Source: Candidatus Peregrinibacteria bacterium CG10_big_fil_rev_8_21_14_0_10_49_10
GTDB lineage: Bacteria; Patescibacteriota; Gracilibacteria; Peribacterales; Peribacteraceae
Direction: 5' to 3'
Length of the DNA: 64,000 bases
NCBI GenBank assembly: GCA_002772545.1
Contig: PFDR01000023.1
Coordinates: 654-64,653 of the forward strand
Part shown: positions 3,400 to 55,223 of the stretch, one piece after another
Layout: each line of letters opens with the position of its first letter
How positions within the stretch are numbered: position 1 is the stretch's first letter
Position numbers and translations under genes: made by a program
Notes under the pieces: generated by a model
Seen by the model: only the letters and a program-made list of their open reading frames with translations
What the model was told of the DNA's origin: nothing
The model's database searches: none

Positions 3400-3660
3400 G
3401 GGTTTGACCTCACCCCCTCACCCCCTCTCCTCCACTTCCATTTTGTGTATGGAGAGGAGAAGTAGTATGAAGTTCTTAGCAAGAAAAACACCTTCCAGGA
3501 GAGGGGGGACAAAGAATCCAAATGAAAAAGCCCCTCTCCTCGAAGGGGTCGCATCTTCTGAAATTTTCACAATAGAGGGATTACTTCAACCTCCACGGAA
3601 ATGGAGGAGAGGGGAAACCCGCCCCCGCCTTGCGGGGCGGAAAGGGGTGAGGTCAAACCC
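3400..3660. repeat. 261-bp nested palindromic element filling the convergent glmS/PBP intergenic gap
   Basis: Perfect 17-bp inverted repeat GGGTTTGACCTCACCCC (3400-3416) / GGGGTGAGGTCAAACCC (3644-3660). Second-tier arms are CCCTCTCCTCC.. / ..GGAGGAGAGGG. An inner 10-bp hairpin is AGGAGAGGGG (3497-3506) / CCCCTCTCCT (3531-3540), and a 7-bp hairpin sits at 3619-3640. Confidence 0.8.
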
Positions 3661-6188
3661 TATTTCTCATCCGGCGGAATGCCGTAGTACTTAAACAAGA
3701 ACGCTGCAATGTCCTTAAAAACCGGAGCAGCTGTAACAGACCCATACTCCCGGGAACGGGGACGATCAAACTTCACAAGAATCACAAATTTTGGTTCATG
3801 GGGCGGAGCATACCCAACAAAGGACGCTATGGAAGAACCTGTCCCTGTTTCGTACTTTCCACCGGGACCGGCTATTTGACTGGTACCTGTTTTACCGGCA
3901 ATGCGATAACCCGGAACTTTACCCGGCTTGGCGTATCCGTTTTGCACCGAACTCACGAGCATAGCAGTGATGGTATCTGCGCTCTCTGTGGTAATGACTT
4001 GGTCGACGATATGGGGTTTTGTGCTCTGCTGTGTGCCATCACTGGTAATAATACTGTCTATGACAGTGGGTCGCATCAGTTTTCCACCGTTGGCGAGTGC
4101 TGCAAATGCAGTAATCATCTGGAGTGGTGTGGCAGAAATTCCCTGACCGTAGGCGGCTGTTGCAAGGAGGGCATTACTCCAGTTTCTCCACGGGAGAATT
4201 TCTCCGGGAAGCTCATCTTCCAGTTCTATGCCGGTAATATTCCCAAAACCGAAGGCATAGAGCATGCGATGAAAGAGTTTACGACCGAGCTTGGCAGAAA
4301 CGTGTGTCATGCAGGTGTTAATGGAAAACTCCAGACACTGGGTCATGGTCACATCTCCAAACTGACGGTTAAACGCGTTACGAATGGTATATTCATCCAC
4401 TTCCACAGGTTTATCATCCTGATAGTGATCAGAGGGCGTTACCTCTCCCTGATCAAGAGCAATGGCCATTGTGACGGGCTTGAGCACAGACCCCGGCTCG
4501 TAAATTTCCTGAATGGTTCTGTTGAGGTAGGCACCCACACCCAGATTATTCTCATACTTGAGCCAAATTTCAGGACGGCTGGTGGGAAAAATCTCCCGAC
4601 GGCTGTTTTCCCCTATGTACTGGTAGTAGCGGACGACATCTTCCAGATTGTGGTAGTTCTGAATCTCACGTACGTCCTGCTGCTTCTGTTCACTGAGAGA
4701 AGCAAAACCCTGGTCTGTAAACAGGTCTCCGAAGTAGGCTTTTAAAATAAATTGATGCGTATCGGGATGGTACAGCTCCACAACAATTTCACGTTGCTTC
4801 CTCTCATCCAGATAAATGGGTATTTTCCCATACACGTTCCCGTAGGAATTGGCATTGAACAAAGGCGCATTGGCCATTGCAATAATGCGCCCGGTAGCGG
4901 GGTCCATGACAATGACCTGACCGCTGTCGGCATCATATTTCTCTACGGCTTTGTTCAGGATGCCCTCAATTTCCCTCTGGACATACCGGTCGATGGTAAG
5001 AACCACCGTATCACCGTCCTTAGGGTCTATAATCCGCTGTTCGGCTGTAAGAATTTGACCGCCTGTAGGGTCATTCACTGTGCGGATGAGACCTTCCTGC
5101 CCGCGAAGCTGAGGATCGAACGTACGCTCTATGCCATACTGCGCTTCCTGGGTTGAATTCAAAAATCCCACAACATGCGACGCCACACTCGCATCCGGAT
5201 AAAATCTCCAGTGTTCCGGAATTAATGCGATGCTGCGCAGCGGGTCGACAATGTTCTGTGCGGCTTCCGTACTGGGTGCATTCTTCTTGCGCTCCAGTGT
5301 GGCAAGAAGAGAATTCTGCTGCATTTCCCGGATGGCAGAGGAAAGCAACGGAGGAAGGCGACGCATAATGGGAACGTAACGAAGTGGCCTGCTCCGCATA
5401 CTGTTACGCAGTACGGCAGGGTCAGTTTGAAGAGGATCAGCCAGTTTACGCGCAATACCGGAAAGCTTTCCCTGGTCTACTTCTTCGGGGTTACAGAAGA
5501 TGAGACGTACGTCTTGTTCCACATACACACCATAAATTCCCAGGTCCTCAACGAGCTTCATTTGTACTTTATTGGCACCATAGAGAAGAGGCACAAACGT
5601 GACTCTCTTTTCGGCAATGCGCTTTTCGATGTCCCGGGTGAACTTTCTGCGTACCTCCAGCACATCCATTGTTGCCTCAAGTGGTGCAGTGGGCAGTTCC
5701 TTTGGAATAGGTTCGAGCAAGCGACCTGTTCCGATATTTGGAATGGACTCCAGCGGGTCGAATGCAAAGGAGTAGTAGGGCCAGAGTTCTCTGGGACAAA
5801 GATCTTCTCCCCGCATGCAGGCGGCATGGAATTCGTCTGTGACGAGTACGTCTGCTATTTGCTTGGCAACAAAACCGGGATCGTTGGTCACGAGAGGATC
5901 AACGTAAATCATATCGAGCGTCGTGTTGGTAGCCAGTATGCTCACTTCGCCACTTTTACTGTTCCGACTGAGAATTTCACCCCGTTTTGCCGGAAGGGAA
6001 ACTCCTCCGTAGTGTTGCTCCTGTGCCAGACTGTGATACTCAGCACCGCGCACTATCTGCAGTTCTATAAGACGTGCCACCACAACGAGCCCGCACACGG
6101 ACAGAATGCCGTACACCATGAACATGCGCTGTACCACAGAACGTTTGCGCTGGGTTTCTGAAATGGCATATCGGTTTCTGGCTGACAC
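3660..6188 (-). CDS. class B penicillin-binding protein (PBP2/FtsI-type transpeptidase), unusually long
   Basis: 842 aa with an N-terminal TM anchor. Motifs SVLK (SxxK), SIN (SxN) and KTGT are present. GTG start is preceded by TGcTACGCT-N6. Confidence 0.85.
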   Translation of the reverse strand: MSARNRYAISETQRKRSVVQRMFMVYGILSVCGLVVVARLIELQIVRGAEYHSLAQEQHYGGVSLPAKRGEILSRNSKSGEVSILATNTTLDMIYVDPLVTNDPGFVAKQIADVLVTDEFHAACMRGEDLCPRELWPYYSFAFDPLESIPNIGTGRLLEPIPKELPTAPLEATMDVLEVRRKFTRDIEKRIAEKRVTFVPLLYGANKVQMKLVEDLGIYGVYVEQDVRLIFCNPEEVDQGKLSGIARKLADPLQTDPAVLRNSMRSRPLRYVPIMRRLPPLLSSAIREMQQNSLLATLERKKNAPSTEAAQNIVDPLRSIALIPEHWRFYPDASVASHVVGFLNSTQEAQYGIERTFDPQLRGQEGLIRTVNDPTGGQILTAEQRIIDPKDGDTVVLTIDRYVQREIEGILNKAVEKYDADSGQVIVMDPATGRIIAMANAPLFNANSYGNVYGKIPIYLDERKQREIVVELYHPDTHQFILKAYFGDLFTDQGFASLSEQKQQDVREIQNYHNLEDVVRYYQYIGENSRREIFPTSRPEIWLKYENNLGVGAYLNRTIQEIYEPGSVLKPVTMAIALDQGEVTPSDHYQDDKPVEVDEYTIRNAFNRQFGDVTMTQCLEFSINTCMTHVSAKLGRKLFHRMLYAFGFGNITGIELEDELPGEILPWRNWSNALLATAAYGQGISATPLQMITAFAALANGGKLMRPTVIDSIITSDGTQQSTKPHIVDQVITTESADTITAMLVSSVQNGYAKPGKVPGYRIAGKTGTSQIAGPGGKYETGTGSSIASFVGYAPPHEPKFVILVKFDRPRSREYGSVTAAPVFKDIAAFLFKYYGIPPDEK

Positions 6189-6227: not shown

Positions 6228-7358
6228 ATGGAGATGACTGATACACAGGAACATTGGGAGACGTTCCCCTGGGAGACGCTCGACGGCACGGCACTGCTCG
6301 AGGCACTGCAGAAGTACAGTATTGAGAAAGGGGTTTCGGACATCCATACCTCTCCCGAAAAAGAATGTGTACGTCTGGAAGTGCGATTGCATGGTGTGCT
6401 TCTGCCCTTGGCAAAATTACTGGAGAAGAACTACATTGACCTGGTCCGGAGGATCAAGTTCCTCTCCAAACTGAAGCTGAACGTCACGAATGTTCCACAG
6501 GACGGTCAGTATACATTTCAGGCACCTGAGCGGAGAGTAAACGTACGTGTAGCCAGTATTCCATCGCGGTTCGGTGAAACCTTCACACTACGACTGCTGG
6601 ATCCGAAAAAAGGGATTGTTCCGCTGGAAAAACTGGGCTTCCCCGATGTGATTCATACAAAACTTGCTGAACTGACCCAAATGCCCAATGGGCTTATTCT
6701 GGTAACCGGTCCTACGGGCTCTGGAAAAACAACCACACTCTACGCGCTGCTCAATACCATGGTGGGCAAAGAACGAAACATCATCACATTGGAAGATCCC
6801 ATTGAGTATGAGTTACCGGGCATTGTACAGAGTCAGGTGGACCATGAACATGAGTACGACTTTGCGCGCGGACTGCGCTCCATTCTCCGTCATGACCCCG
6901 ATGTGGTACTGGTGGGAGAAATTCGTGATATGGAAACGGCACAAACAGCCATAGATGCTTCACTTACAGGCCACCTTGTTCTTTCCACGCTGCACACCAA
7001 CTCTGCCATAGAAGCCATCCCGCGCTTTCTTTCTATGGGTGTGAGTCCCTATACCTTTGCACCTTCCCTTCGTGCGGTGCTCGCACAGCGTCTTGTGCGT
7101 ACGGTAACACCGGAATGCAAAAAAGAAGGGGCACAGTGTGATCCCGCAGACCACACGACCTACGATGGCGTAAAGGCTCTTCCGGAACTGCTGGTGGCAA
7201 CGCCTGAAATACGTGAACACATCCTGCAAAATGATACTGCCGCAGACATCGAAAAAGTTGCACGCGAGCAGGGGTACATGGAAATGAAAGACTGGGGAAA
7301 GATCTTTGTGGAGAATGGCGTGACGAATGAGTCCGAAGTCACACGGGTAACGATGTAG
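6228..7358 (+). CDS. GspE/PilB-family type II/IV secretion ATPase (short form)
   Basis: Walker A GPTGSGKTTT, VVLVGEIRDMETA, and His box GHLVLSTLHTN. The real start may be the second ATG at 6234, which lies 6 nt after TGgTACAAT. Confidence 0.85.
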   Translation: MEMTDTQEHWETFPWETLDGTALLEALQKYSIEKGVSDIHTSPEKECVRLEVRLHGVLLPLAKLLEKNYIDLVRRIKFLSKLKLNVTNVPQDGQYTFQAPERRVNVRVASIPSRFGETFTLRLLDPKKGIVPLEKLGFPDVIHTKLAELTQMPNGLILVTGPTGSGKTTTLYALLNTMVGKERNIITLEDPIEYELPGIVQSQVDHEHEYDFARGLRSILRHDPDVVLVGEIRDMETAQTAIDASLTGHLVLSTLHTNSAIEAIPRFLSMGVSPYTFAPSLRAVLAQRLVRTVTPECKKEGAQCDPADHTTYDGVKALPELLVATPEIREHILQNDTAADIEKVAREQGYMEMKDWGKIFVENGVTNESEVTRVTM

Positions 7359-12653: not shown

Positions 12654-14444
12654 CTAGACGCGCACAAACGGAATCGACACAATGAACAATGAACAGAGAG
12701 CGACGAGCAAGAGCAGCGCTCCACGGAAGAGCGGTCGGCGTTTCTTGGGAAGCAGACGAATACCAATGAGTAAGGAATAGACTGCAGGTACAAGCAGGAG
12801 TACGGCAAAACGAAAATCCTGTGTAGGACTAAAGGGCTCGTACTGGCGTATGGCAATGTGCCCGGCAAGCAAAACAAGTACGCTGTACCAGAGAGGAAAG
12901 GTTTTGTACCAGGCATGCCGGATGATGCGGTAGAACCCAATGAACAGCACCGGAAGCAAGAACAAGGCAAGGGCAACCAGAGCAGAAGCGAGAGGGCGTA
13001 AGACTGGTCCGAAGCTAAACTCTCCGAACAGTGAGCTTAAGAACCAATACTCCCAAAAATGATTGCGAACTTCTCCACCCCACGCGTTATTGTACGGTTC
13101 CAGAATGAGTCGGAGCGGATTGAACTCCGTGAGTGTATCAATGGAATTTTCCACGCGTAATCCGCTATGTAAGTTTCGTGTGTTCTCTATAAGAGACGTG
13201 TTGTTCTCCCATCCAAAACGGACCACGTAAAACCATGCACACATACACAAAATTGCGAGTATGCCACGTATGCCCAGTTTTAACTTTTTATCCCATGACA
13301 TCTTTTTGCGTATGAGCAGACACCCATACAAAACGGGAAGGAGGAGCAGGGCATTACTTTTTGTCAGAATGCCCAGACCTGTAGCTACTATAGCCACATA
13401 CCAATCTCTCGGTCTCTCATCTCTCCACCAACGTAGCAGGAAGCCAAATGCGACAAACGCAAAGAGTTGATACAGAACGTCGTTATTGACACGTGCGGAA
13501 AAGTACAGGAGGCTCGGTTGCACGGCCAAAACAAGAAGAAACATCAGGCGATCTTTTCGGTGTTTCCTCTTTGGGAAAAGGAGAGAGGAAATCCAACAAA
13601 TGACTCCGTATGTGCCAATAGAAAGAAGGAGCGCTTCAACCTGCAACCCACGAAGCAACGCAGCTTTCAGTGGTTCAAACAAAGAATGAATTTGCATCCA
13701 AACAGCAGAAAGTGCGTAGTAGAGCGGGGGATGGTAAAACTCCCATCCCGTACCGGAGGATGGCATGGCAAACGAATGATCCAGCAGGTACTGAATATAT
13801 TCCACATGGCCGTCTGTATCGTGCCCGCGTATGCCATACGGCGTACCAAAGAAATAGTAGAGCCGCATGAACGTTGCAAATGCAAAGATCAGCCACAGCA
13901 GGACATCAAATCGTTTCTTGCAATATCGGAGTGCAACTTTCCAGAAGTATACAAAAATGAGAAGAACAACCAGAAACCGCAGGAGGAAGAGGAGGGGATC
14001 ATTCGGTGCCACAGAAATCTGCAGCTTGGAGAGCCCGCCGTCATTTTGCAGTGCGACCAGTAACGTATTTTCTCCGGCCCGTAGGTACGGAGAAAATTTC
14101 AAATCTTTTCCGTACACATATCCGCAGAGCGGGAAAAACTCCGCGGGCAACTCCAGTCTGTTTACAGTGATACTCTGTATACAGTCATCCGGCACTATAC
14201 GGTAACGGGAGGGTCGAATGAGTCCCACACGCATGGTTGAAAGAATCTCTACTTCTACATCGTCCTCCGTATTCATGGAAAAAGGATGCGTGAAGGAAGT
14301 CCACTCCTTTTGAGGTACAAAACGGTAGCGTCCGTTTGAAAACGAAGGCTGCGCAGCATGAAATGCAGAAAGGAGGAACACAAGTGCGAACAGAAACAGC
14401 ACAGTGTCCCGTACAAACATTCGGTTGGGGAGATGCGATCGCAT
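12654..14444 (-). CDS. polytopic membrane glycosyltransferase, GT-C fold (PMT/ArnT-like)
   Basis: 596 aa. An extracytoplasmic N-terminal domain of about 140 aa is followed by more than 10 predicted TM helices. A GIRGHDTDGHVEYIQYL..YHPPLYY loop resembles the GT39/GT83 families. Confidence 0.55.
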   Translation of the reverse strand: MRSHLPNRMFVRDTVLFLFALVFLLSAFHAAQPSFSNGRYRFVPQKEWTSFTHPFSMNTEDDVEVEILSTMRVGLIRPSRYRIVPDDCIQSITVNRLELPAEFFPLCGYVYGKDLKFSPYLRAGENTLLVALQNDGGLSKLQISVAPNDPLLFLLRFLVVLLIFVYFWKVALRYCKKRFDVLLWLIFAFATFMRLYYFFGTPYGIRGHDTDGHVEYIQYLLDHSFAMPSSGTGWEFYHPPLYYALSAVWMQIHSLFEPLKAALLRGLQVEALLLSIGTYGVICWISSLLFPKRKHRKDRLMFLLVLAVQPSLLYFSARVNNDVLYQLFAFVAFGFLLRWWRDERPRDWYVAIVATGLGILTKSNALLLLPVLYGCLLIRKKMSWDKKLKLGIRGILAILCMCAWFYVVRFGWENNTSLIENTRNLHSGLRVENSIDTLTEFNPLRLILEPYNNAWGGEVRNHFWEYWFLSSLFGEFSFGPVLRPLASALVALALFLLPVLFIGFYRIIRHAWYKTFPLWYSVLVLLAGHIAIRQYEPFSPTQDFRFAVLLLVPAVYSLLIGIRLLPKKRRPLFRGALLLLVALCSLFIVSIPFVRV

Positions 14445-16056: not shown

Positions 16057-16809
16057 CTACTTCTGTGAGAGAAGAATTTTCTTGGCCTCTATCTTCAGAC
16101 GGCTAAAGACAATCTTAGATGCCTCGGCGCGGCTTACGGGATCATACGGACGGAACTTCCCGGTAGGCAGACCATCTTTTCCTCTATCCCCGGAAATAAT
16201 CTTGAGTGCTGCAGCACTTGCAACGTAGCGCTCAAGGGGGTGCCCCTGGGTATCTGTAAAGTCAGAAGCGATGGGAGGAAGAGGATCCTGAAAAGCATCA
16301 CTCACTATCGATACAGCTTCTGCACGTGTTACCGGTACGTTCAGGTCTACGTTGGATCGATCCAGAACAGTCACAAAGTACTCTTCCGCACAACCTACAT
16401 ACGCTTTTGCCCAGTGTTCCTGCGCCTGAGAGAGCCTTGGATTCTTGCAGAGTTCTTCATCCACACCAGCGGCTTCAAACGAAATTTTAAGCATCTCTGC
16501 TAGGGTTACAGAGCGCGAAGGCTCAAATTTTCCCGTCAGCTTTCCCGTACCGTTCTTCGTTCCGGAAACCAGTCCCCAGGAAGCAAGGGAAGTCACATAG
16601 GGATGGAACCACTCCGTATCCTCCACATCCGTAAACGGGGAAGAAATTTTTCCGAGTGTTTCAAGTAAATCTGAAAAATCACCACTGTGATTTGCCTGCC
16701 AGGAAATAAGTTCGGATTCCAATCCCTGGAGTTCTGTAAAGAAACCGAGTGCTGCAACAGGGGAGAAGAGCAGCACTACGAGTGCCGATGCTCGCAGTTT
16801 TTGTTTCAT
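16057..16809 (-). CDS. SLH-domain cell-surface protein
   Basis: Signal peptide plus three SLH-like repeats: FTDVEDTEWFHPYV..., HWAKAYV...VTRAEAVSIV, and FTDTQGHPLERYV...VSRAEASKIV. Confidence 0.7.
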   Translation of the reverse strand: MKQKLRASALVVLLFSPVAALGFFTELQGLESELISWQANHSGDFSDLLETLGKISSPFTDVEDTEWFHPYVTSLASWGLVSGTKNGTGKLTGKFEPSRSVTLAEMLKISFEAAGVDEELCKNPRLSQAQEHWAKAYVGCAEEYFVTVLDRSNVDLNVPVTRAEAVSIVSDAFQDPLPPIASDFTDTQGHPLERYVASAAALKIISGDRGKDGLPTGKFRPYDPVSRAEASKIVFSRLKIEAKKILLSQK

Positions 16810-16837: not shown

Positions 16838-18841
16838 TCAGGATTCAACACTCACATTCGCCAATGGTATCCAGTACGTAAATGTTGTGCCCACTCCCAC
16901 CTGAGACTGAACCGTAATGTCACCACCCTGAAGGGTCATGAAGTTTTTTGCAATATACAGGCCCAGACCGGCACTCACCTCACCATCTCCTGCGGAACGG
17001 GTAAGAAGCTGGTCCTGCGTAAAGAGCTTTCGCAGAGTAGCTTCGTCCATGCCTTCGCCGGTATCGGACACATGAATACATACTTGATTACTCTTCACTT
17101 CAATGCGAACAGTAATCGCACCGTTCTCTGTATGTTTCAGGCCATTACTCACGCTGTTGCCTACTGCTTCTGTTATTTTCTCAGTATCTGCCAAAATACG
17201 GAGAGTGGGGTCTATGTCTTCAATAATCAGCTTAAGACCCTTCTGTGTAATGGGTTGGCGATAATTTTTCACACTCATTTCCACCACATCCTTCAGGAAG
17301 ACGGGTTTTATTTTCACTTCAATCACTCCACGCTGAATGCGGGATACATTGAGCAAATCTGAAATGAGCACATGATTCTGCGCATTCACATCATAAATCT
17401 CCTGAACCAGTGAACGTGATTCCTCTGAAAATTTTTCTTCTATAGCAGCTTCCAAAAGCAATTCCGAATGCCATCGAATGGCTGCAACAGGTGCCTTCAG
17501 CTGATGGGAAACAAACGAAATGACATTGTCTTTCAGGGTTTCTATGCGTTTGCGCTCGGATATATCCTGGGCAATCACGGAACCGCCTATCATACGCTTT
17601 TCTGCATTACGAACAGCGGATATGGTCAGAGACACTGGCAGCATATCCCCATTTTTTTTCACCCATACGGACTCCAAATGCTCTACAGCTTCCCCACGCG
17701 CTACACGCCCAAGCAGATCCACCAGAGTGAGTTTCTCTTTGGGAGAGAAGAGTACAAACGGCTTTGAGAGAACGTCTTGCACGCTGTAACCCAGCAAACG
17801 TGTGGCAGCAGCGTTCCAGGTACGTACTCTTGCATCTGCTGTAAGCCCGATGATGGCATCATTCGACTGCTCCACAATGGAAGCTAGTTTCCTCAGTTCA
17901 CGATTAAGACGCTCATTTCTGGCACGGGTGCGTGCAAGAGAAACAATGATACTTAAAGTAAGAAGAGTGAGGAAACTACCTGCAAGAGCAATCCGTACTC
18001 TTACGCGCCATAAAGGCGCATAGGCCTCATCCACAGGCTGGTTGGCAACAATGACCCAGAGCTTGCCGCCAACATTCACGGGAAGGAACGTAGCCAGCAT
18101 ACTCTTCCCGAGGAGGGGATCTGTGTACTCAGTCGTACGCATGGTACCTGCTAAAGCCTCCCGGATACTTTCGACATGGTTGTACCCCGCATAGAGAAGA
18201 TGCGATTGGTCGTTTTCGGGATGAGCAACCAATGTACCGGAGCTATCCAGAACATACAGGTAACCGGATTCGGCAAGTCGGATGTTCCGGAGTTGCTCAC
18301 TGAGCGCACTGAGGCTGTATTCCAAAACAAGTACGCCAATCATATGCTCATCGGCAAACACGGGAGATGCAATAGCCGTCACGACAGCAGGAGGATCTTC
18401 CGTACGCACGTATACGTTTGAGATGACGGAACGGCCCTCCTTTAGAACATCTTTGAACCACTGCGCAGTGAAAAAATTCTCCCCCACGGTATCCACGGCA
18501 GGCGGGTAGTCACTCCATAGAACACCGCCGCTTGTGGTCATAAACGCCCGGTTTACAGCAGGAGAAGAGAGCACCAGCGGCTTGAGGCGCACACGCATGG
18601 CCTTGGCATCCAGATTGCTGGCTGCGTCTACGGTACCGGGTAAGGAAGAGAATGCGGTGGTTACCGTAAAAACCTGGAATAAGTCCTGGTTCATCTGCTG
18701 AGAAAAGTTGGAAACAGCAGAGAGGTTGGAAGACTGCACAAGATTCTGTACGGAATCCGCTGCAATCCGATAGGAGTAGACGCTCAAAAGTACAATGGGC
18801 AGCAGTGCTACCAGAAACGGCAGTGACCAGAAAAATGCCAT
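16838..18841 (-). CDS. sensor histidine kinase (Cache-like periplasmic domain, PAS, HisKA, HATPase_c)
   Basis: Two TM segments flank a roughly 270-aa extracytoplasmic domain, followed by a PAS region. H-box FVSHQLKAPV, N-box NGLKHT, G-boxes DTGEGM and GLGLYIAK. Start set at the MAFFWSLPFL Met. Confidence 0.85.
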   Translation of the reverse strand: MAFFWSLPFLVALLPIVLLSVYSYRIAADSVQNLVQSSNLSAVSNFSQQMNQDLFQVFTVTTAFSSLPGTVDAASNLDAKAMRVRLKPLVLSSPAVNRAFMTTSGGVLWSDYPPAVDTVGENFFTAQWFKDVLKEGRSVISNVYVRTEDPPAVVTAIASPVFADEHMIGVLVLEYSLSALSEQLRNIRLAESGYLYVLDSSGTLVAHPENDQSHLLYAGYNHVESIREALAGTMRTTEYTDPLLGKSMLATFLPVNVGGKLWVIVANQPVDEAYAPLWRVRVRIALAGSFLTLLTLSIIVSLARTRARNERLNRELRKLASIVEQSNDAIIGLTADARVRTWNAAATRLLGYSVQDVLSKPFVLFSPKEKLTLVDLLGRVARGEAVEHLESVWVKKNGDMLPVSLTISAVRNAEKRMIGGSVIAQDISERKRIETLKDNVISFVSHQLKAPVAAIRWHSELLLEAAIEEKFSEESRSLVQEIYDVNAQNHVLISDLLNVSRIQRGVIEVKIKPVFLKDVVEMSVKNYRQPITQKGLKLIIEDIDPTLRILADTEKITEAVGNSVSNGLKHTENGAITVRIEVKSNQVCIHVSDTGEGMDEATLRKLFTQDQLLTRSAGDGEVSAGLGLYIAKNFMTLQGGDITVQSQVGVGTTFTYWIPLANVSVES

Positions 18842-19052
18842 GCGTGAAAAGCCACCTGCCCGCTTTGCAGAGAGAAAGGTTTGTACCTTCTGAGGAAAAT
18901 GGGAAGAATGCACACAAACAGTATGCCCGTAACTGTGGGTCTTGCACAAAAACAGATCCGGTACAAAAAGAAGTAAAACAACATTTTTTCATACATACAA
19001 GTATTCACCAACTCCGGAAAACGCTATACTGTGATGAAATATACAAAAAAAC

Positions 19053-22000
19053 GTGCAGAGACTACTCTCAAAAACAGGGGTTGTACTTTCCCTTCTGGTG
19101 ACACCGCTCACCATTGGGCTCGTGCACACCGCAACCATCTGGAGCAATGCTCGGGCAACTTTGTCTACAACTCAGAACACTGGTTGCTTTTACTGGCGTG
19201 ATCCGTGTTTAAAGCAAGGAAAGTGGGTCGAAAAGTGTTCATTGGCTCCGCGTTTTGAACGCGTCCAATGTAACATAGACGAATGTAACGTAGGTAAATG
19301 CACAAAAAATGGAGCACTTCTTACGGAAACAGGGACCGTTGGCATAGTGGAAGAGATACAGCTGTATATTCCGCGCCGACTGAAAGTGGAAATCCAGAAA
19401 GAAGCTCCGGAACCTGACCCCGTACTCCAATCGGGCTGTTACTTCTGGTACGACCCCTGTCCGGAAACAAGTAAAACCTGCACACCTCCTCCGAGGGTTA
19501 TTCATACCACATGTGACGATGTGCGTTGCAACCTCGGCCCCTGTGGAGAACCCGAGATAGTCTCCTTTAATGAGAATATGTCGGAACAACAGGAGGCAGA
19601 TCTTGTCACGGTGGATCTGCATGATTTTAACGGTGACGGAATGACGAATATCAAAGATAAAGAAATGCAGCAGGAAATAGCAAAGGACATCCTCAGTAAG
19701 CGAACTGTTACAGACACAAAGGAAAAGAAGGAAGAAATTGATTCACTCCGAAAAGCTGCTCCGCGGATGCGGGAGGGATGTTTCGATTCCAAAGGTGAAT
19801 GGATACAAGAAGCCACTGCCTGCGCAGAAGACCAAACGTCCTTCCTATTGCAATCATTTGAAATCGCCGATAGCCGTACAGGAGCCGTGATTGCAGATTT
19901 GGAAAATGAAAAAAAGTGGCAAAAGACCATTACTGCAACACTGTTCCAGGAAACAGTAAGCCAGCAACAGGTAGAACTCACACGCATCATGGGAAAGGGC
20001 ATCTACCGTTTAGCCATGCTGCATGAACGAAAGGATCTTTCTCAAACATTCCGGAAGAATCTCGAAAAAAGCATGCAGAACGTAAGTTCGCTCTACAATT
20101 CTCTGCTTACAAAAGGGCAACGCACGGAAGAGGAGCTGCAGGACACATCTCTGACCATGCAGAAGGAATTTTCATTTATAGAAACACTACTGGAAGATGA
20201 AGACCGCACAAAGCGCATAGAGAAAGAGGCATTGCAGGCACCTGCAGAGAGCGAAGGAGAAGAAGGTATGGGAGTAGGGGAAACAGATATAGTTCCCGTA
20301 CAGGAAGAACAGACTCCTTCTACGGAAGAAGTACCTCAACCTACACCGCACAACGACATTCTTGAAATTGTACAGAAGACGCAAAAGCTTCTGGATACAG
20401 TAAAAACAACCATGGTCATGTATGAAGAAAATGGCATTGTTCTACCCCCCACCGCTCGCAAGGCGTACGAAGAGGCTCTGGCTCTTTTTGTGAAAATAAA
20501 ACCTGTGTGTGAGGAAAACACGGAAGCCTGTGTACGTCTTTGGGATGTCTTTAGCATTATAGAAACACGGATGCAGGGACCCATGGTGGCTGCGTTGTAC
20601 TCAAGCGGCAGCAAAGATGTGATACAGAAAATTGAATCTCTGTTCCGTGAAGGAGAAGAACTCGGGCCAAATATGCCGGGTACACCTCCGCCGCATGGAG
20701 AGTGTGATCTGATTGTGGGAACAGATGCAGCTCAGAAATCCATGCGTGAATGGTGCAAACAACGCAGAAATCAGGAACCAAACGGCTATGGAACAGGATA
20801 TCCTCCTTACGGGAACAACCAACCCGGAGTGGGGGGCGGACACCCGGACGATGTGTCCGGCAATCGGAGGTTCTGGACGATGAATGGAGAGAGCTTTCGT
20901 GTAGATACGGTGGAACAGTGTGACACACTGGGAGAAAAGAACACCTGGTCAACAGAAGAGAAGAAATGGTGCAGAATGATGTTTGATGACCACCACGGAT
21001 CTTATGAAGATGCAAAGAGAGAATTTTGGGACAAAAAAGGCAATAGACATGAAATACTTTCCCGGGAAGACTGTGCAACGCTTGCCGAACAGGGCGCTAT
21101 AGAACAGAGTGAAACAGACGAGTGCTACAAAGTATTTGACGAGGGATACAGCACTCCGGATGAAAGAAGACACAGCCCCTACTTCTGGGATAGCAAAGGC
21201 AACAGGTACGACGTGAAAACCGAAAAAGAATGTACAGAGCTTGCCACCAAAAACAAGTGGAGCGAAGAAGAGAAGGGTTGGTGTGTCATGATGTTTAGGC
21301 CTGAAATGTATATGGTCAGTCCGCCTCCTCAGGAAAAGTATGCAAGCGGAAGTATCACAGGAAGCTCCGAACACATCTACTGGTCAGCTTCAAAGAACAA
21401 GTCATTTGGCATAAAAACAACAGCTGATTGCGACGCGCTTGTTGCGAAAGCAGCAATTCCTTCCGCAGAAAAACAGTGGTGCTATGATGCTTTAAAAGAT
21501 TGGGGAGCGGGCATGGGAGGAACCACGAGCTACAGAATGTACTGGTCACCTTCAAGGCAGCAGTCATTCAATGTTCCCAGTAGAGGAGACTGCGACAAGC
21601 TCCTTTCAGACGGAAAGATTCCGCGTACAGAAAAAGAGATGTGCTACACGGCATCGGACAGCAGAGGAAGTGGTGGCGGTGGAGGAATGGGGTCCGTATC
21701 GTACTGGTCACCGTCCAAAAACAAATCGTTCACCGTTACAACCACAGTGGAATGTGACAACCTTGTCACAAGAAAAGACATCCCGTCTACAGAGAGAGAA
21801 ATGTGTTACAGGAGTATGGGAGGAGGTGGCGGAACAGGATCCCGGAGTTATTGGTCAGCTTCTAAACAACGGTCTTTCAGCGTCTGGAATACCAAAGACT
21901 GTGATGCGCTGGTTCCGGGAAGTATCCCCGAATCGGAACGAAAAATGTGCTACGACGCACTCGGGAATTACCCGGAAGGCACGGGGAGTTCCTCCTACTG

Positions 22001-23447
22001 GTACTGGTCGGGCACTGCAAACAAATCCTTTGAAATACGAAGTACCGCAGACTGTGACCGCCTTGTAACAGACAAAAAGATTGCTGCATCCGAAAAGGAT
22101 ATGTGCAACGCCTCCATGAGCACCGGAGGATGGAACGGATGGAAAAATCCCGAATGCCAGACCAGCAAGTGTTACTGGTCTTCCTACGCACAGAAAGAAT
22201 ACCCCGTGAGCAGCGAAGCAGATTGTGACGCTCTCATACTCAAAGGATACATACAATCTTCGGAACGCGACTGGTGCGTTATGGCAACCAAGAACTGGGG
22301 GACTGGAAGCAGCAGTTCCTATGGGAGTTGGAGCAGTTACGGCACGTGGTCCGTCTGGTACAGGTCACCTTCTCGCAATCAATCATTCACCATCACATCC
22401 CGGACAGACTGCGATAGAATGATTACCGAAAACATGATCCCCGCAACAGAGAAGGAAATGTGTTACAGCGTCCTAGTAGGTGGCAGTACCGGAAGCGTAA
22501 GCAGCTACTACAGTTCATACAGCAGTACGAGCAACAGTAGTAGGAGTTATAGCAGCAGTTCCCGGAGCAGTGCATCCTCCTCTTCCGGAAGCGGGCATGA
22601 ATACTGGTCTACCAAAGGTGTGCGGTACTGGGTGAATGACGAAGCCCACTGCGATACGCTCGCCGGTCAGAATGGATGGTCAGAAAACGACAGGAGCTGG
22701 TGCAAACAGATGTTTACCGGTTATACCGGAGGAACGAGTTACGAGTACTGGACAAGCACCGGAGAGCACTACTGGGTTAAACAGGCAACAGACTGCGACT
22801 ATATGGCTATAGACCATGGGTGGAGTGACCAAGACAAACAATGGTGCAGATCCATGTTTAGCGGGAGCAGCGGCGGGGGAGAAACAAGCACCACCACAGA
22901 AGGAAGCTACGGAGGAGGAAGCAGCGGCGGAAGTTATACAGGAGGAACAACGGACGGCGTGTACTGGTACTGGTCCGATTACGCAAAAAAATCCTTTGAG
23001 ATCCGTAGCATGGAAGACTGCGAAACGCTCATCTCCAATAAAGAAATTCCCGAATCCGAACGTGACTGGTGCAGTGCGTCTATGAGCACCGGAGGATGGA
23101 GCGGGTGGAGCAATCCCGAATGCCAGACCAGCAAGTGCTACTGGTCGTCTTCCGCACAGAAGGAATACCCTGTAAGCAGCGAAGCAGACTGCGACGCACT
23201 CATTTCCAGCGGCTCCATACCTTCTTCGGAACGGGATTGGTGCGTTATGGCAACAAAAGACTGGGGAGACAGTGGCAGTACAAGTAGCTGGGGCAGCGGA
23301 GACAGCTGGAGCAGTTTTGACCCCTCCTTCTGGTCACCCACTGCACAGAAGACGTTTAACGTCTGGACACACGATGACTGTGGCTACAGAGGAGTACCCG
23401 ACGCCGATTTGCAACTCTGCTACGACGCCGTAGACGCCAAGTACTAG
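19053..23447 (+). CDS. giant secreted protein with about 15 tandem two-cysteine modules
   Basis: 1464 aa with a signal-like N-terminus. Two 6-Cys modules follow the pattern GC[FY][FY]W.DPC...C...C..CN.G.C. A coiled-coil/acidic middle is followed by about 15 repeats of roughly 45 aa, of type YWS.S...SF.[IV]....DCD.L.....IP..E+.MCY or FW...G..[YF].V....C..L...N.WS..E+.WC..MF. A poly-Ser tract is also present. Confidence 0.8.
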   Translation: MQRLLSKTGVVLSLLVTPLTIGLVHTATIWSNARATLSTTQNTGCFYWRDPCLKQGKWVEKCSLAPRFERVQCNIDECNVGKCTKNGALLTETGTVGIVEEIQLYIPRRLKVEIQKEAPEPDPVLQSGCYFWYDPCPETSKTCTPPPRVIHTTCDDVRCNLGPCGEPEIVSFNENMSEQQEADLVTVDLHDFNGDGMTNIKDKEMQQEIAKDILSKRTVTDTKEKKEEIDSLRKAAPRMREGCFDSKGEWIQEATACAEDQTSFLLQSFEIADSRTGAVIADLENEKKWQKTITATLFQETVSQQQVELTRIMGKGIYRLAMLHERKDLSQTFRKNLEKSMQNVSSLYNSLLTKGQRTEEELQDTSLTMQKEFSFIETLLEDEDRTKRIEKEALQAPAESEGEEGMGVGETDIVPVQEEQTPSTEEVPQPTPHNDILEIVQKTQKLLDTVKTTMVMYEENGIVLPPTARKAYEEALALFVKIKPVCEENTEACVRLWDVFSIIETRMQGPMVAALYSSGSKDVIQKIESLFREGEELGPNMPGTPPPHGECDLIVGTDAAQKSMREWCKQRRNQEPNGYGTGYPPYGNNQPGVGGGHPDDVSGNRRFWTMNGESFRVDTVEQCDTLGEKNTWSTEEKKWCRMMFDDHHGSYEDAKREFWDKKGNRHEILSREDCATLAEQGAIEQSETDECYKVFDEGYSTPDERRHSPYFWDSKGNRYDVKTEKECTELATKNKWSEEEKGWCVMMFRPEMYMVSPPPQEKYASGSITGSSEHIYWSASKNKSFGIKTTADCDALVAKAAIPSAEKQWCYDALKDWGAGMGGTTSYRMYWSPSRQQSFNVPSRGDCDKLLSDGKIPRTEKEMCYTASDSRGSGGGGGMGSVSYWSPSKNKSFTVTTTVECDNLVTRKDIPSTEREMCYRSMGGGGGTGSRSYWSASKQRSFSVWNTKDCDALVPGSIPESERKMCYDALGNYPEGTGSSSYWYWSGTANKSFEIRSTADCDRLVTDKKIAASEKDMCNASMSTGGWNGWKNPECQTSKCYWSSYAQKEYPVSSEADCDALILKGYIQSSERDWCVMATKNWGTGSSSSYGSWSSYGTWSVWYRSPSRNQSFTITSRTDCDRMITENMIPATEKEMCYSVLVGGSTGSVSSYYSSYSSTSNSSRSYSSSSRSSASSSSGSGHEYWSTKGVRYWVNDEAHCDTLAGQNGWSENDRSWCKQMFTGYTGGTSYEYWTSTGEHYWVKQATDCDYMAIDHGWSDQDKQWCRSMFSGSSGGGETSTTTEGSYGGGSSGGSYTGGTTDGVYWYWSDYAKKSFEIRSMEDCETLISNKEIPESERDWCSASMSTGGWSGWSNPECQTSKCYWSSSAQKEYPVSSEADCDALISSGSIPSSERDWCVMATKDWGDSGSTSSWGSGDSWSSFDPSFWSPTAQKTFNVWTHDDCGYRGVPDADLQLCYDAVDAKY

Positions 23448-25642: not shown

Positions 25643-26569
25643 TCATTTCCCATGGAACCTCTCATGGACATCCTTCAACTGTGGATTGGTCACATGGGTA
25701 TATATCTGGGTCGTACTCAGATCCGCATGCCCCAGTAATTCCTGTACAGATCGTAAATCAGCACCATTTCTGAGGAGATCGGTTGCGAAGGAGTGCCGGA
25801 GGGTGTGGGGCGAAGGGTCACTCACAATCCCTTCCTGCAGCGCGTATTTTTTCACGATGTTGTAGATGGAAATACGCGAGAGGCGAAACTCTTCACCGGG
25901 GGGCATTGCGGTACCTGTTTGCTGCATATTGCGGATAAAGAGGGGAGTGAGACTATCTAACCGGACTTCCAGGTATTCCTTGAGGGCCAAGCAGGCACGG
26001 TCCGAGAGAAAGACCACGCGAATTTTCCCTCGCTTACCACGCACCGAAATCTCACGAGTGTCAAAGTTTAGGTCTTTCGTATTCAGTCCCCGAAGTTCTG
26101 CCAAACGTAAACCGGTGGAAAAAAACATTTCGAGTATTGCCCTGTCTCTCTTGCCTATTTTTGTCGAAACGTCGGGGGACTCGAGGAGCCTCTTGAGCTC
26201 TTCAGCACGGAGTACTTTGACCTGACGCTCTTCCTGTTTGAACCTCTGTATGCGGTCGGGTGCGTAAATGCCCTCCATTTCCTCATCCTGCAGTAAATAT
26301 CGCAGGAAAGCCCGTAGGACGGTGAGATGGTAGTTTTTGGTAGTGATACTCAGGGGCTTGCCATTGCGGGCCGTAGCGGAATGGAGTTTAGATTTCAGCG
26401 TCCGAATGGTGAGTTTATGAATGTCTATGGCATCCGAGACGTCCAAAAGCTCCAACAGAAGGTCAAGCGAGCGCCTGTAATTGGCTACAGTGAGGGGGGA
26501 TTTGTTTTCCTCCGCCTGCATATACAGGACGTAGCGTTCCATGGCTTGCGAGAGCGGGGATTGGTTCAT
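25643..26569 (-). CDS. XerC/XerD-family tyrosine recombinase
   Basis: 308 aa. N-terminal SAM-like core-binding domain, HTLRHSFAT, and LGHADLSTTQIYTHV with the catalytic Tyr. Confidence 0.9.
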   Translation of the reverse strand: MNQSPLSQAMERYVLYMQAEENKSPLTVANYRRSLDLLLELLDVSDAIDIHKLTIRTLKSKLHSATARNGKPLSITTKNYHLTVLRAFLRYLLQDEEMEGIYAPDRIQRFKQEERQVKVLRAEELKRLLESPDVSTKIGKRDRAILEMFFSTGLRLAELRGLNTKDLNFDTREISVRGKRGKIRVVFLSDRACLALKEYLEVRLDSLTPLFIRNMQQTGTAMPPGEEFRLSRISIYNIVKKYALQEGIVSDPSPHTLRHSFATDLLRNGADLRSVQELLGHADLSTTQIYTHVTNPQLKDVHERFHGK

Positions 26570-26760: not shown

Positions 26761-27384
26761 TTACTTTAATTGTTCATACATAAAATAGTACACGAGTCCC
26801 ACTGCTTCCCGCGCTACAGCTTTAAGCTCAAAAAGAAGAGTGGGCACTTCCCCGGCCGGGAGTGTACGAAGATCCTCCCAACCCTGGAGTTTTGCGAGGT
26901 AGGCAATGCGGGCAAGATGATAGCGATCAGAAATGCCCACAATAGAGGAACAGTCCCCTACAAGATCTTTTGTAAAAAGAAGGTTTTCCCAGGTGGAACG
27001 CGCCTGTTCCTCCAATACAACATCATCAGGATCCACACCATCGAGTAATGCAACCTTTCGCATAACCTCCGCCTCACTGTCAAGTTTTGCCGTACCCTTG
27101 CCACCGGTGAGAATAATGGTCTGCACATCACCCTGTTGGTACAACGCAGCCGCAGTTTGTACCCGACGCGTAATGGCCGGGCCCGGCTGAGAACCTCTCC
27201 ACACGGCAGCACCAAATACAATGGCACAATTCTTTGTGCCGGCTTGCCACTCCCCTCCTCCTGCCGTACCACTGAACTGAGAAACAATGTAGAGCATGAG
27301 AACTGCAAAAATAAAAGAAATGGCTAGCAGAAGCCTAAAAGTCCACGTACGGAGCCACCTTAGTTGGGCAGTACTTGGAATCAT
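26761..27384 (-). CDS. DUF218 (YdcF/SanA/ElyC-like) membrane-anchored protein
   Basis: AIVFGAAVW..PGPAITRRV..LYQQG..IILTGGKG...SEAEVM...STWENL...ISDRYHLARI pattern. Start ATG 27384 overlaps the upstream stop in an ATGA arrangement. Confidence 0.72.
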   Translation of the reverse strand: MIPSTAQLRWLRTWTFRLLLAISFIFAVLMLYIVSQFSGTAGGGEWQAGTKNCAIVFGAAVWRGSQPGPAITRRVQTAAALYQQGDVQTIILTGGKGTAKLDSEAEVMRKVALLDGVDPDDVVLEEQARSTWENLLFTKDLVGDCSSIVGISDRYHLARIAYLAKLQGWEDLRTLPAGEVPTLLFELKAVAREAVGLVYYFMYEQLK

Positions 27385-29027
27385 CGCATGACGTCTATGG
27401 AAATATGCGAAGGAATGGAAGGCAATATGTTCTGCCAGGGCGGCCACACCGCTATTTCTACGTTTTCTACTTCCGGCAGATTCTGAATAATGCGTTCTGC
27501 TGTCACCTTCTGTTTTCCTGTAATGAGCTCACGCAGTTTTTTCCCAAACTGGGCACCGGTAGGACTGAGGGGATCGAGGATGTACTGCACCGTACCCGAG
27601 AGATCCACGGTAAGTTTTATCCAGGTGAGCTCATCATTGTAATCTATCACGTGCGCAACGAGACGATCCAATGTGAGCGTATCTTCCAGCAGACGCTTGC
27701 CTTCTTCCGTGTGTACACGAAGTTCCTGCTTAAGCAGTTCTAAGATGCGGTGGGAGTCGTACGCATAAGCCGTATACACAATTTCCCCGCTTACAGGAAC
27801 AGAAAGCATGGGCTGACCAAGAAATTGTCTGGGGAGACTGAAGTTTTGGTAGGATGAGTTTGTAAGTTCGTCGTAGTACAAAATCTCCATGTTGTGGTCG
27901 GGGTGCTCGGAATTGTAGAGTTCCCGCTGCTCATCTATGAGTTGCTTGGCTGTGCTCAGGAGTTCCTGTTCCAGTTTCAGCTTGGCCACCTGCAAATCTT
28001 CCTCGTGTACGACAGTTTTGTACGCGGACTCCCCGCCAAAACCAGCACTGCGGTTTTCCGCATACACTTTTTGCTGTTCCTCTTTCGAAAGACCAGGAAT
28101 ATTCCAGTGGAGTCCTGCGGGAACATTACCGCGCTCACCCACAATCTCCCCATAGAGGTCCATATCGTCGGCCTCCGCTCGTACAGTCACTTCGCCGCCG
28201 GGCGGAATGACCGCCGGCTCCTGGGTGCGAAAGACCATTCCTGCCTGATTCATAACGCGTGTACCCACACGAAGTGAATAGGTTTCTTTCGCGGTGTTAA
28301 TCATAGTCATGGCAACCCGTGAGCTGGTCCCCACGAACTCCTTGGAAATTTGGTCAAAGGTCATGGAACGTTCCACATCCACACGAATGGGCATTAACTC
28401 CAGTGTTCTCACACGTGAAGGGACTTCCTCTATGGTGGAACCGGAGAGTACTAAAAAGATATTGGCAGTTTGAGAAATGGTGTCTTCACGCGGCCATACC
28501 TGTATGGTAGCGGAAGGCAGCAACCTGAAGATGACGAAAAGAAAGAGCAACCCACTCACCAGAATCAAAATCCACACACGGAGTTTGGGCAGACTGAGAA
28601 GCCCCATAGACTGCAAATTGCTGCGCAACTTCTGCCTCCAGATATTTGGGGAAAACGCACGGACCGCTTCTTCGTACTTGGGATGCCCGTGCAGAAGATG
28701 TTTGAGATCCTGCACGCTATCTACCACGCGAATGCCCCGCGAGCGCGCCGCAGCCATCAGGACACGCTGACGGGTCGCAAGGTGCACTCGACTGCTTAAC
28801 CCGGCCATAGCATCTAAAAAGATCACACGCTCCTTCTCCTGTTTCGCCAGTACGACATCAGGGCCCGTGAGGACTATCACCATACTCCCCTGCTCCCTTT
28901 CTATGCGTTTTCTAAATGCAGACCATGACTCTCCCTCTTTGGGAAAGAGCACGGTGATGTCAGCATTCTTTGAAGAAGGCATGGGAACAGTATGAAGGAA
29001 GCACTGAGTATTGGAAACTTCTTCCAT
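27381..29027 (-). CDS. hypothetical single-pass membrane protein (548 aa)
   Basis: Long ORF with a cytoplasmic N-domain of about 150 aa, one TM (VWILILVSGLLFLFVIF) and a large extracytoplasmic domain. No family recognised. Confidence 0.6.
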   Translation of the reverse strand: MEEVSNTQCFLHTVPMPSSKNADITVLFPKEGESWSAFRKRIEREQGSMVIVLTGPDVVLAKQEKERVIFLDAMAGLSSRVHLATRQRVLMAAARSRGIRVVDSVQDLKHLLHGHPKYEEAVRAFSPNIWRQKLRSNLQSMGLLSLPKLRVWILILVSGLLFLFVIFRLLPSATIQVWPREDTISQTANIFLVLSGSTIEEVPSRVRTLELMPIRVDVERSMTFDQISKEFVGTSSRVAMTMINTAKETYSLRVGTRVMNQAGMVFRTQEPAVIPPGGEVTVRAEADDMDLYGEIVGERGNVPAGLHWNIPGLSKEEQQKVYAENRSAGFGGESAYKTVVHEEDLQVAKLKLEQELLSTAKQLIDEQRELYNSEHPDHNMEILYYDELTNSSYQNFSLPRQFLGQPMLSVPVSGEIVYTAYAYDSHRILELLKQELRVHTEEGKRLLEDTLTLDRLVAHVIDYNDELTWIKLTVDLSGTVQYILDPLSPTGAQFGKKLRELITGKQKVTAERIIQNLPEVENVEIAVWPPWQNILPSIPSHISIDVMR

Positions 29028-34383: not shown

Positions 34384-35979
34384 CTAATCCTTCACATACT
34401 CCATGGGCCGACTCACATTCTGGAAGGGCTGGGCCTGTATAACAATGGTTCTCCTGCCACGGGGCAGCATGTAGACTTCGGCTTCACCCTGTACAAAATC
34501 CACTTGTGAGAGAATTGCAGGACGGAATTCCGCATCTCCGTAAGCAGTGTGCATGTAAATATCACGATCAAGCCGTGGGTTAAAGATCAGATTGCCCTGA
34601 GCATCCGTGAGTTGCACGGTAATTTTTTCCCACCCTCTTCCGCTGTAACTCTCATCATGTTGCACCTCTACGTTGGCAACTATGACCTGCTCCATAAGAA
34701 TGGACTCGGTATCCCGGGAAGCCACTTCACTCGTCTGTACGATGGTCGGTGTACGTGCAACCTGCAATGTTGCAAATTTCTCCCGTTCCAGTCGCTCCTG
34801 AATACGTTCCTGCCGACTCTGAGCTATACGTTGTGCTAAGGAAAGTCGAACAACGGGTGCAGCAGGTGGTGCTGGTTTCAACACGTTCAGAGGAGGGGCA
34901 GTATGTACAGTCGTATCCTGTGTATTTGCAGCCACTGTCTGCACAACTACCGAAGATGCAGGTACTTCTGCCACATGCTCTGCAAGGCGTTGGTGTATAC
35001 GCAGAGCCACACGTTCCTCCCTCGTCAGTACAGGTGGTGCCTGCACGTCCTGCACAACGACTTGTTGTGTGAAAGAAGGATAATTGCTCTGTACATAGAG
35101 CATGGGATGGACTGTGTACTCCGTAAGGCGCTCACTGTAGAGTCCTACATCCACAGCCTGGTCCGTCGTGAGATGTGCTTTCGTTGCTTCCTCATCGGTA
35201 AACGGCCAGAAGGGGTGGAACGGTGCACTCTCTCTGTCCATTTGGAAATGCAAATGCGGTCCTGTCACAAAGCCTGAATCACCAGAGTAAGCAATCTGCT
35301 GGCCCTTCTGCACCACATCTCCTTCGGAGACGAGGAAACTCTGCAAGTGGGCGTAGCAGGAGTACAACGTTGTCAAACTGTTTGGACGGTCAGGGTCAGG
35401 AACATTGGGGTGTCGTACAATGACCACATTGCCATACCCACCTCCTGTTTTTATTTCTTCCACAATGCCGTTGGCAACCGCACGGACAGGCGTACCAATG
35501 GGTACCCGGATATCCACCCCGGGGTGGCTACCGGAATTTTCGGCACCTGTGGAGTAAGAGCCCCTGTTTCCTACAGAGTAGAAACTGGAAGTGGTAGAAG
35601 CACTCCGTGTACGCAGTTGCTCATACTGATCATACTGAGGCAAATCTATAAGAAGATTCTGCGGCACCTGTCGAAACGTATGCAGTTCCGCACTCCCCCC
35701 GTAGGCAGACCATTTGCTGTAATCCGGAACTTTCTCAATGGGAGAGACTGTTCCCATATACACGATGAGGCTATCATCCTGATTACCCAGCACGGAAGCC
35801 ATAAACAGGTACCAACCATGCTGCCCTATCATATTGCCAATGATGAATGCCATCACTGAAAGCGTAGCAATCCAAAAGGAACTCCTCTGGCTGAGGAAGT
35901 ACACAGGGTGGGGCTCCCGCTTATTATGCAGAGGCCCGGAGGCAAAGCCGTGTTTGCGGCGTGAGACAAGAGAAGTCAT
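34384..35979 (-). CDS. membrane-anchored M23 (LytM-type) metallopeptidase
   Basis: HPGVDI (HxxxD) and GPHLHFQM (HxH) motifs, an N-terminal TM segment, and a long C-terminal extension. Confidence 0.85.
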   Translation of the reverse strand: MTSLVSRRKHGFASGPLHNKREPHPVYFLSQRSSFWIATLSVMAFIIGNMIGQHGWYLFMASVLGNQDDSLIVYMGTVSPIEKVPDYSKWSAYGGSAELHTFRQVPQNLLIDLPQYDQYEQLRTRSASTTSSFYSVGNRGSYSTGAENSGSHPGVDIRVPIGTPVRAVANGIVEEIKTGGGYGNVVIVRHPNVPDPDRPNSLTTLYSCYAHLQSFLVSEGDVVQKGQQIAYSGDSGFVTGPHLHFQMDRESAPFHPFWPFTDEEATKAHLTTDQAVDVGLYSERLTEYTVHPMLYVQSNYPSFTQQVVVQDVQAPPVLTREERVALRIHQRLAEHVAEVPASSVVVQTVAANTQDTTVHTAPPLNVLKPAPPAAPVVRLSLAQRIAQSRQERIQERLEREKFATLQVARTPTIVQTSEVASRDTESILMEQVIVANVEVQHDESYSGRGWEKITVQLTDAQGNLIFNPRLDRDIYMHTAYGDAEFRPAILSQVDFVQGEAEVYMLPRGRRTIVIQAQPFQNVSRPMEYVKD

Positions 35980-55193: not shown

Positions 55194-55223
55194 TATCCCC
55201 TTTTGCCTCTGTTCAATTCTCCT

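Follow-up and report, generated by a model that had tools for sequence, protein, structure and literature searches.

A conserved Peregrinibacteria core protein fused to an array of fifteen two-cysteine modules without a catalogued family

We studied a 64,000-nucleotide (nt) stretch of the genome of Candidatus Peregrinibacteria bacterium CG10_big_fil_rev_8_21_14_0_10_49_10 (contig PFDR01000023.1, positions 654 to 64,653; the window, hereafter, means this whole stretch), and in it the gene at 19053-23447 of the forward strand, which encodes a protein of 1464 amino acids (aa). As judged from sequence comparisons, this protein is a conserved core fused to an expanded C-terminal array of small modules with two cysteines each; outside this protein and its orthologue the module occurs in one or two copies in surface layer (S-layer)-type proteins. 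The module is, by the searches described below, a new domain that no catalogued family matches. The likeliest reading, to which we give about an even chance, is that the protein is a flexible multivalent cell-surface binder or adhesin, a function suggested by its sequence features and by structural models. An earlier reading of this DNA, made from the letters alone (the sequence-only reading), had singled out the same giant open reading frame (ORF) as encoding a secreted protein with about 15 copies of an unrecognised two-cysteine module, a description that the present analysis largely bears out, with corrections to the layout of the array, to the region preceding it and to the proposed fibre.

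The ORF is intact and starts with GTG. A profile hidden Markov model (HMM) built from the modules found 15 significant copies between aa 604 and 1461, scoring 36.7-64.9 bits each (i-Evalue 4e-10 to 6e-19), and no copy in the other five frames or in the rest of the window; an array of 15 copies is far beyond chance. Every copy contains exactly two Cys residues, spaced as C-x16-C in 13 of the 15, as C-x15-C once (aa 950/966) and as C-x12-C in the last one (aa 1443/1456). The repeat had been described as a unit of roughly 45 aa with two Cys, in two alternating flavours. The two Cys stood, and the fixed length did not: the module core is about 40 aa long, start-to-start spacing varies from 48 to 80 aa and the linkers have 6-38 residues. 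Nor do the flavours alternate; they follow one another in blocks, in the order aaa-bbbbbbb-aa-bbb. Modules 1-3, of flavour a (aa 604-645, 655-696 and 708-749; 50.6-57.6 bits), are encoded at 20862-21299 (+), and modules 4-10, of flavour b (aa 774-815, 828-869, 882-923, 931-971, 982-1023, 1039-1080 and 1101-1142; 57.3-63.5 bits), at 21372-22478 (+). They are followed by the Ser-rich linker at 22479-22592 (+; aa 1143-1180), that is, the poly-Ser tract already noticed from the letters. Modules 11-12, again of flavour a (aa 1181-1222 and 1229-1270; 56.4 and 56.3 bits), lie at 22593-22862 (+), and modules 13-15, of flavour b (aa 1304-1345, 1361-1402 and 1424-1461; 57.2, 64.9 and 36.7 bits), at 22962-23435 (+). 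Two of the linkers carry an extra C-x4-C pair, aa 1024-1040 (nt 22122-22172) and aa 1346-1362 (nt 23088-23138).

Both flavours are homologous (hhalign probability 97.5%, E=5.7e-12), with a mean module identity of 34% within a, 43% within b and 23% between a and b. In an alignment of 33 modules (A2), two Cys residues, C20 and C37 in module numbering, were invariant and W5 was conserved in more than 90% of the sequences. The signature of the module can be written as [FY]-W in a first strand, aromatic-x-[VI] in a second strand, [DE]-C-x2-L opening a first helix and [WM]-C closing a second helix, with C-x16-C between the two Cys. The array as a whole is composed of 5.1% W, 5.6% Y, 16.3% S and 9.2% G. 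Repeated small Cys-containing units with unstructured linkers between them are also what a polyprotein precursor would present, one whose array is cut at the linkers to release small disulfide-bonded signal or toxin peptides. We hold this to be very improbable, in view of linkers of the above length range that have no conserved cleavage motif, of the lack of adjacent protease, maturase or transporter genes, and of the presence of the same module as a single unit inside large proteins anchored by S-layer homology (SLH) domains (see below).

The predicted fold of the module is consistent with the small disulfide-stapled unit that the sequence-only reading had imagined. AlphaFold2, given module 1 with alignment A2, returned a model with a predicted local distance difference test (pLDDT) score of 95.4 and a predicted template modelling (pTM) score of 0.70, in which strands at residues 3-5 and 11-13 are followed by helices at 17-26 and 31-39 (beta-beta-alpha-alpha). 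In this model C20 opens helix 1 and C37 closes helix 2, and a stapling disulfide is the natural reading because an antiparallel helix pair would bring both residues face to face; a single disulfide C20-C37 thus probably locks the mini-domain. A tandem of two flavour-b modules and their linker (aa 982-1080) was modelled with pLDDT 85.3 and pTM 0.49; the same fold formed twice and the linker was poorly defined (pLDDT <50 at residues 47-50). Given the low pLDDT of the linker and the pTM of 0.49, the array resembles a flexible string of beads that fold independently more than a rigid rod, and a fibre, as proposed from the letters, is not supported in rigid form.

No known family was recovered with the protein or with its parts. 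The whole 1464-aa protein had no match to Pfam or NCBIfam at E<=10, Myxococcus cysteine-rich repeat and FG-GAP-type profiles included, and none of the 33 single modules matched a Pfam family, even at E<=10. Weak matches to DUF2760, CPL1-like and Aconitase_C were dropped, being under their cut-offs and not recurrent. Among PDB sequences, the best match to the module profile was 5JI4 (37 residues), which we take to be a designed mini-protein, with a non-significant E=0.044. Foldseek returned nothing below E~0.8, either for the single module against PDB and BFVD or for the tandem against PDB, although a query of 42 residues has little statistical power.

The module was also searched for exhaustively, by running HMMER with alignment A2 at E<=1e-3 against a set of 1.84 billion representatives that stand for about 15 billion proteins. 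Eleven proteins were returned, and seven of them were real clusters; the other four (P0003, P0004, P0009 and P0011) were rejected as spurious, for they are highly repetitive sequences that matched only part of the profile. The real clusters are the 1464-aa protein itself (P0001), an orthologue (P0002, see below) and five others (P0005-P0008 and P0010). In addition, a scan of genome contigs with the two full-length orthologues gave no relative among 185,579 species representatives. By these searches, the module is extremely rare in public data.

The five other proteins have 1006-1501 aa, contain the full-length module once or twice and, in five of five, carry SLH domains; we refer to them as SLH giants. 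P0006 and P0010 are recorded in NCBI nr as 'S-layer homology domain-containing protein [Candidatus Peregrinibacteria bacterium]', and a third is encoded on a Peribacteria genome contig. The module region of P0007 shared 46% identity with the modules of the window over a local alignment of 69 residues. Their N-terminal half, rich in Cys and Gly, is where the module is found, distant from the SLH wall anchor.

The orthologue P0002 has 1598 aa and 18 modules, and is collinear with the 1464-aa protein (39% identity, 97% coverage) with Cys and Trp conserved. Genes at its locus follow the order seen in the window: Pterin_4a, an unknown protein of 298 aa, an SLH protein, a dCache/PAS histidine kinase and, divergently, the giant; synteny on the P0002 contig stops immediately after the giant gene. 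The ORF is not disrupted in this relative, yet the array is absent from all more distant orthologues of the core. Several modules of the window are closest to their positional counterpart in P0002 and not to any paralogue (aa 708 to 720, 828 to 935, 1181 to 1279, 1229 to 1327 and 1361 to 1452), both flavour-a modules 11-12 (aa 1181 and 1229) among them. Since modules match by position, most of the array is older than the split of the two organisms and has been kept since.

At the DNA level, the array contains only one sizeable duplication, 21996-22295 versus 22962-23261 (300 nt, 77% identity), and the remaining copies are just 60-84% identical over short stretches. This divergence of the DNA copies excludes an assembly artefact as well as a very recent expansion. 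A mis-assembled or non-coding repetitive stretch staying open by chance has, in consequence, an almost negligible likelihood, all the more so with an identical protein in independent assemblies, the syntenic orthologue just described and a confident predicted fold for the module. Records of this protein come from ENA, Logan, JGI/IMG and NCBI, the JGI copy differing only in the translation of the start codon, and for P0002 a single-substitution variant exists.

The N-terminal 600 residues, more or less, precede the array. GTG 19053 is the earliest possible start, because the nearest in-frame stop on the 5' side lies at 19035-19037; at the position aligned to it the orthologue P0002 has a Val codon. 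Scans for promoters and terminators gave sites no more numerous than in shuffled sequence. A putative signal peptide or signal anchor is encoded at 19053-19160 (+; aa 1-36), with a hydrophobic segment at aa 9-29 followed by A-R-A. This segment is the sole hydrophobic 19-mer peak of the whole protein, and its position is kept in all the homologues of the core. Export, which the sequence-only reading had assumed, is therefore plausible, as predicted from the single N-terminal hydrophobic segment and from the company of the module, which outside the orthologue pair is carried by SLH surface proteins. Two 6-Cys modules lie where they had been placed before, at 19182-19301 (+; aa 44-83; C-x6-C-x9-C-x10-C-x4-C-x4-C) and at 19434-19544 (+; aa 128-164), and are nearly invariant between the 1464-aa protein and P0002; the total of Cys residues in the protein is 52 (3.6%). 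Between them and the core, a stretch at 19623-19658 (aa 191-202), DFNGDGMTNIKD (DFNGDGLTDRED in the orthologue), fits the pattern D-x-N-x-D-G-x5-D of a 12-residue EF-hand/dockerin-type Ca2+-binding loop. It lies in an otherwise variable region, is common to the two giants only and is a similarity at the level of the pattern, with no profile match.

The region between the 6-Cys modules and the array had been taken for a coiled-coil/acidic segment. Searches with tblastn and with an HMM of the N-terminal part showed that it is no generic coiled coil: aa ~120-540 belong to a family that is specific to the lineage and in which three Cys pairs are conserved, and the first ~540 residues together correspond to a conserved Peregrinibacteria protein without annotation. 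The conserved core proper (19770-20657 (+); aa 240-535) comprises a CF-x2-DG..C-x2-DQ motif, a helical region of acidic character and, C-terminally, a domain with KPxC-x6-C. Homologues were found at 13 other Peregrinibacteria loci (L004-L012, L015, L016, L021 and L022) with HMM E-values of 1e-32 to 1e-160; they have 405-610 aa and 0-3 six-Cys modules each. The 1464-aa protein itself scores 130-550 bits with HMMs of the core alignments A4 and A5. C243, F244, C257, Q261, C493 and G519 were invariant in ten core sequences (alignment A4), and the 1464-aa protein shares with the family the hydrophobic N-terminus, the CF-x2-DG..C-x2-DQ motif and the C-terminal domain with a C-x6/7-C pair. No Pfam match was obtained across the ten core homologues, and no PDB match with the core profile.

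The homologues at the other loci stop directly after the helical domain or in a tail rich in Pro, Gly and Tyr, and none of the 13 has the two-Cys array. From this distribution, the array is a lineage-specific add-on to the core. In the 1464-aa protein a Pro/Gly/Tyr-rich junction (20673-20861 (+); aa 541-603) connects core and array. It contains a 'headless' C-x16-C segment (aa 551-568), within ECDLIVGTDAAQKSMREWC at 20697-20762 (aa 549-570), whose likeness to the module is confined to the half with the two helices. The segment lies at the core/array junction, the orthologue has one too, and its score with the module HMM was not significant; it might have been left over from the time when the array arose.

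The core gene has a constant neighbour. In the window, in locus L001 and in 13 of 13 other loci it adjoins, divergently, a gene for an SLH protein of about 250 aa, with a kinase gene sometimes between them. In the window these are a small SLH-domain protein of 250 aa (16057-16809 (-); Pfam SLH E=1.1e-15) and a divergent dCache/PAS histidine kinase (16838-18949 (-)), syntenic in the orthologue and in L005. The top ~25 relatives of the small SLH protein come almost exclusively from metagenome-assembled genomes of Candidatus Peregrinibacteria/Peribacteria (33-48% identity), which places the window in a Peribacteria-like bacterium that lacks a close species representative. Core and small SLH protein form a conserved, unannotated Peregrinibacteria gene pair, and neither family seems to have been described. 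SLH giants related to P0007 lie beside the pair at three loci (L004/L013, L015 and L010); with such neighbours, the region is a cell-surface (S-layer-type) locus. Of these giants, only the L004 protein carries the module. Two simpler associations were rejected: the module is not a constant companion of the SLH+core pair (true at one of the 13 other loci), and the core is not common to the window giant and the SLH giants, which lack it. SLH itself (PF00395) was absent from both the 1464-aa protein and P0002 in the Pfam search.

These data bear on how the array might be used. Non-covalent wall anchors classically take the form of a C-terminal array in which aromatic-rich repeats of ~40 aa are joined by Ser/Gly-rich linkers, and the array of the 1464-aa protein could resemble LysM, choline-binding or CWB repeats in holding the core on the cell's own peptidoglycan or secondary wall polymer. 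The layout and the partner gene, whose product is an SLH wall-binding protein, speak for such an anchor. On the other hand, an N-terminal hydrophobic anchor or signal is already present, 13 core orthologues do without the array, the module of the SLH giants is far from the SLH anchor, in the N-terminal Cys/Gly-rich half, and no sequence match to LysM or to any other wall-binding Pfam family was obtained, so that we consider self-anchoring rather improbable.

The array could also be a passive element, either a flexible stalk that disulfides toughen and protect from proteases or a matrix component associated with the S-layer. In both cases it would set spacing at the cell surface and its modules would bind nothing. 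Its flexible G/S linkers with no fixed inter-module geometry, its conserved residues, which look mostly like fold-core positions, and its setting in an S-layer/SLH locus agree with this. We nevertheless think it unlikely. The positional orthology of several modules at 39% protein identity, together with the flavour blocks, suggests position-specific roles beyond spacing; the high Trp/Tyr content is typical of binding modules; and a single copy is kept in SLH giants, where one copy cannot space.

The flexible multivalent binder, to which we gave an even chance above, would work as follows. The protein would be exported and would either stay attached by its N-terminus or be released. The C-terminal array of ~860 residues, gained in the sub-lineage, would project outward from the cell, with its modules oxidised to the stapled form. 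The Trp/Tyr-rich array would then bind a repetitive polymeric ligand, probably a glycan, multivalently and with high avidity; possible ligands are the wall or S-layer of the cell itself and the surface of a partner cell. Several points weigh against the proposal. The array could, as said, be a passive spacer; the disulfide is derived from the placement of Cys residues in predicted secondary structure; the array is seen in two organisms only, so selection on it is poorly sampled; and the array is not essential to the function of the core, because most Peregrinibacteria orthologues lack it. A more specific proposal, that the module is a new small fold limited to Peribacteria-like bacteria of the candidate phyla radiation (CPR) and serves as a ligand-recognition unit for attachment to the partner (host) cell, we regard as doubtful. 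If it were true, the passage from 1-2 copies in S-layer-type proteins to 15-18 on a conserved envelope protein would show how this lineage adapted the avidity of its attachment or its host range.

Other genes of the window were also noted. A second giant ORF (55203-60569 (+); 1788 aa), with 11 DUF11 repeats and DUF7507- and DUF7619-like parts, probably encodes another large surface protein. An ORF of 1258 aa (48521-52297 (+)) had a weak, below-cut-off protein-kinase match (aa 169-291) and a C-terminal SpoIIE/PP2C phosphatase domain. Upstream of the giant, at a distance of 4.6 kb, lies a PMT_2-type (dolichyl-phosphate-mannose protein mannosyltransferase-like) glycosyltransferase (12654-14444 (-)), an enzyme type that may have a bearing on O-glycosylation of the linkers rich in Ser and Gly. 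Downstream there are a tyrosine recombinase (Phage_integrase; 25643-26569 (-)), an ORF of 548 aa (27381-29027 (-)) whose weak precomputed Baseplate_J match was not reproduced at E<=0.001, and an IS1595-family transposase (46220-47131 (+)). A type II/IV secretion (PilB/PilT-like) ATPase, a PBP2-type transpeptidase and an M23 peptidase (listed at 6228-7358 (+), 3660-6188 (-) and 34384-35979 (-)) agree with reports that Peribacteria genomes are rich in envelope and pilus genes.

The prevailing view is that CPR bacteria live attached to other cells, yet hardly any of the molecules that make the contact are known. The present analysis gives a defined new domain with a confident predicted fold, found in seven clusters among the 1.84 billion representatives, and an unannotated conserved Peregrinibacteria gene pair, with a natural domain fusion that ties the module to that locus. 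For studies of binding and structure the modules offer small targets that can be expressed, and domain databases gain a new family. Should the module be only a spacer, the finding would be routine, one more entry among catalogued lineage-specific repeats. The finding is useful to CPR cell-surface biology, but no surprise in a lineage full of unannotated exoproteins. Neither the module, its fold prediction or its rarity, nor the core+SLH gene pair or the core-array fusion, was in any source found in the literature.

Compared with known systems, the module recalls LysM, whose arrays consist of ~40-45-aa units of two strands and two helices, in tandem, with Ser/Thr/Gly-rich linkers, in exported bacterial proteins. 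The likeness lies in the small two-strand/two-helix tandem unit and the flexible linkers, and is to be taken as a lead only. The 33 modules had no match to LysM (PF01476) in the Pfam search, their order is beta-beta-alpha-alpha versus beta-alpha-alpha-beta in LysM, and the invariant disulfide pair is a feature of the module and not of LysM; the order of the module could in principle be a circular permutation of the LysM order. EGF-like and TSR-like arrays, as well as designed disulfide-stapled mini-proteins such as 5JI4, share the concept of tiny disulfide-dependent domains strung extracellularly, but show no homology, have two to three disulfides versus one in the module, and differ in topology.

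The SLH giants are another comparison. Like the window protein they are large, carry the module and have Cys- and Gly-rich parts, and one of them adjoins the SLH+core pair; unlike it, they are anchored by SLH domains, their helical body is of another kind, and they have neither core nor array. A broader class is that of Candidatus Peribacter riflensis, for which large Cys-rich, predicted extracellular proteins of more than 1000 aa with a signal sequence have been reported and a role in attachment proposed (Anantharaman et al. 2016, PeerJ, PMC4736985). Peribacteria also encode one disulfide-formation protein, S-layer genes and extensive surface-glycan synthesis (PMC4736985). The description of those Cys-rich proteins went no further than composition and weak similarity to three families, Myxococcus Cys-rich repeats, FG-GAP and pappalysin (PMC4736985), and the module of the window matches none of these families. 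The window protein resembles them in lineage, in its length of more than 1000 aa and in its N-terminal export-type hydrophobic segment, and has 3.6% Cys versus 7.2 +/- 2.4% in the reported cluster (PMC4736985); the class is compositional and not a homology family. Large Cys-rich exported proteins of Peribacteria, with small disulfide-containing units as building blocks, are a class already noted, and what is new within it is the module, the gene pair and the fusion of core and array.

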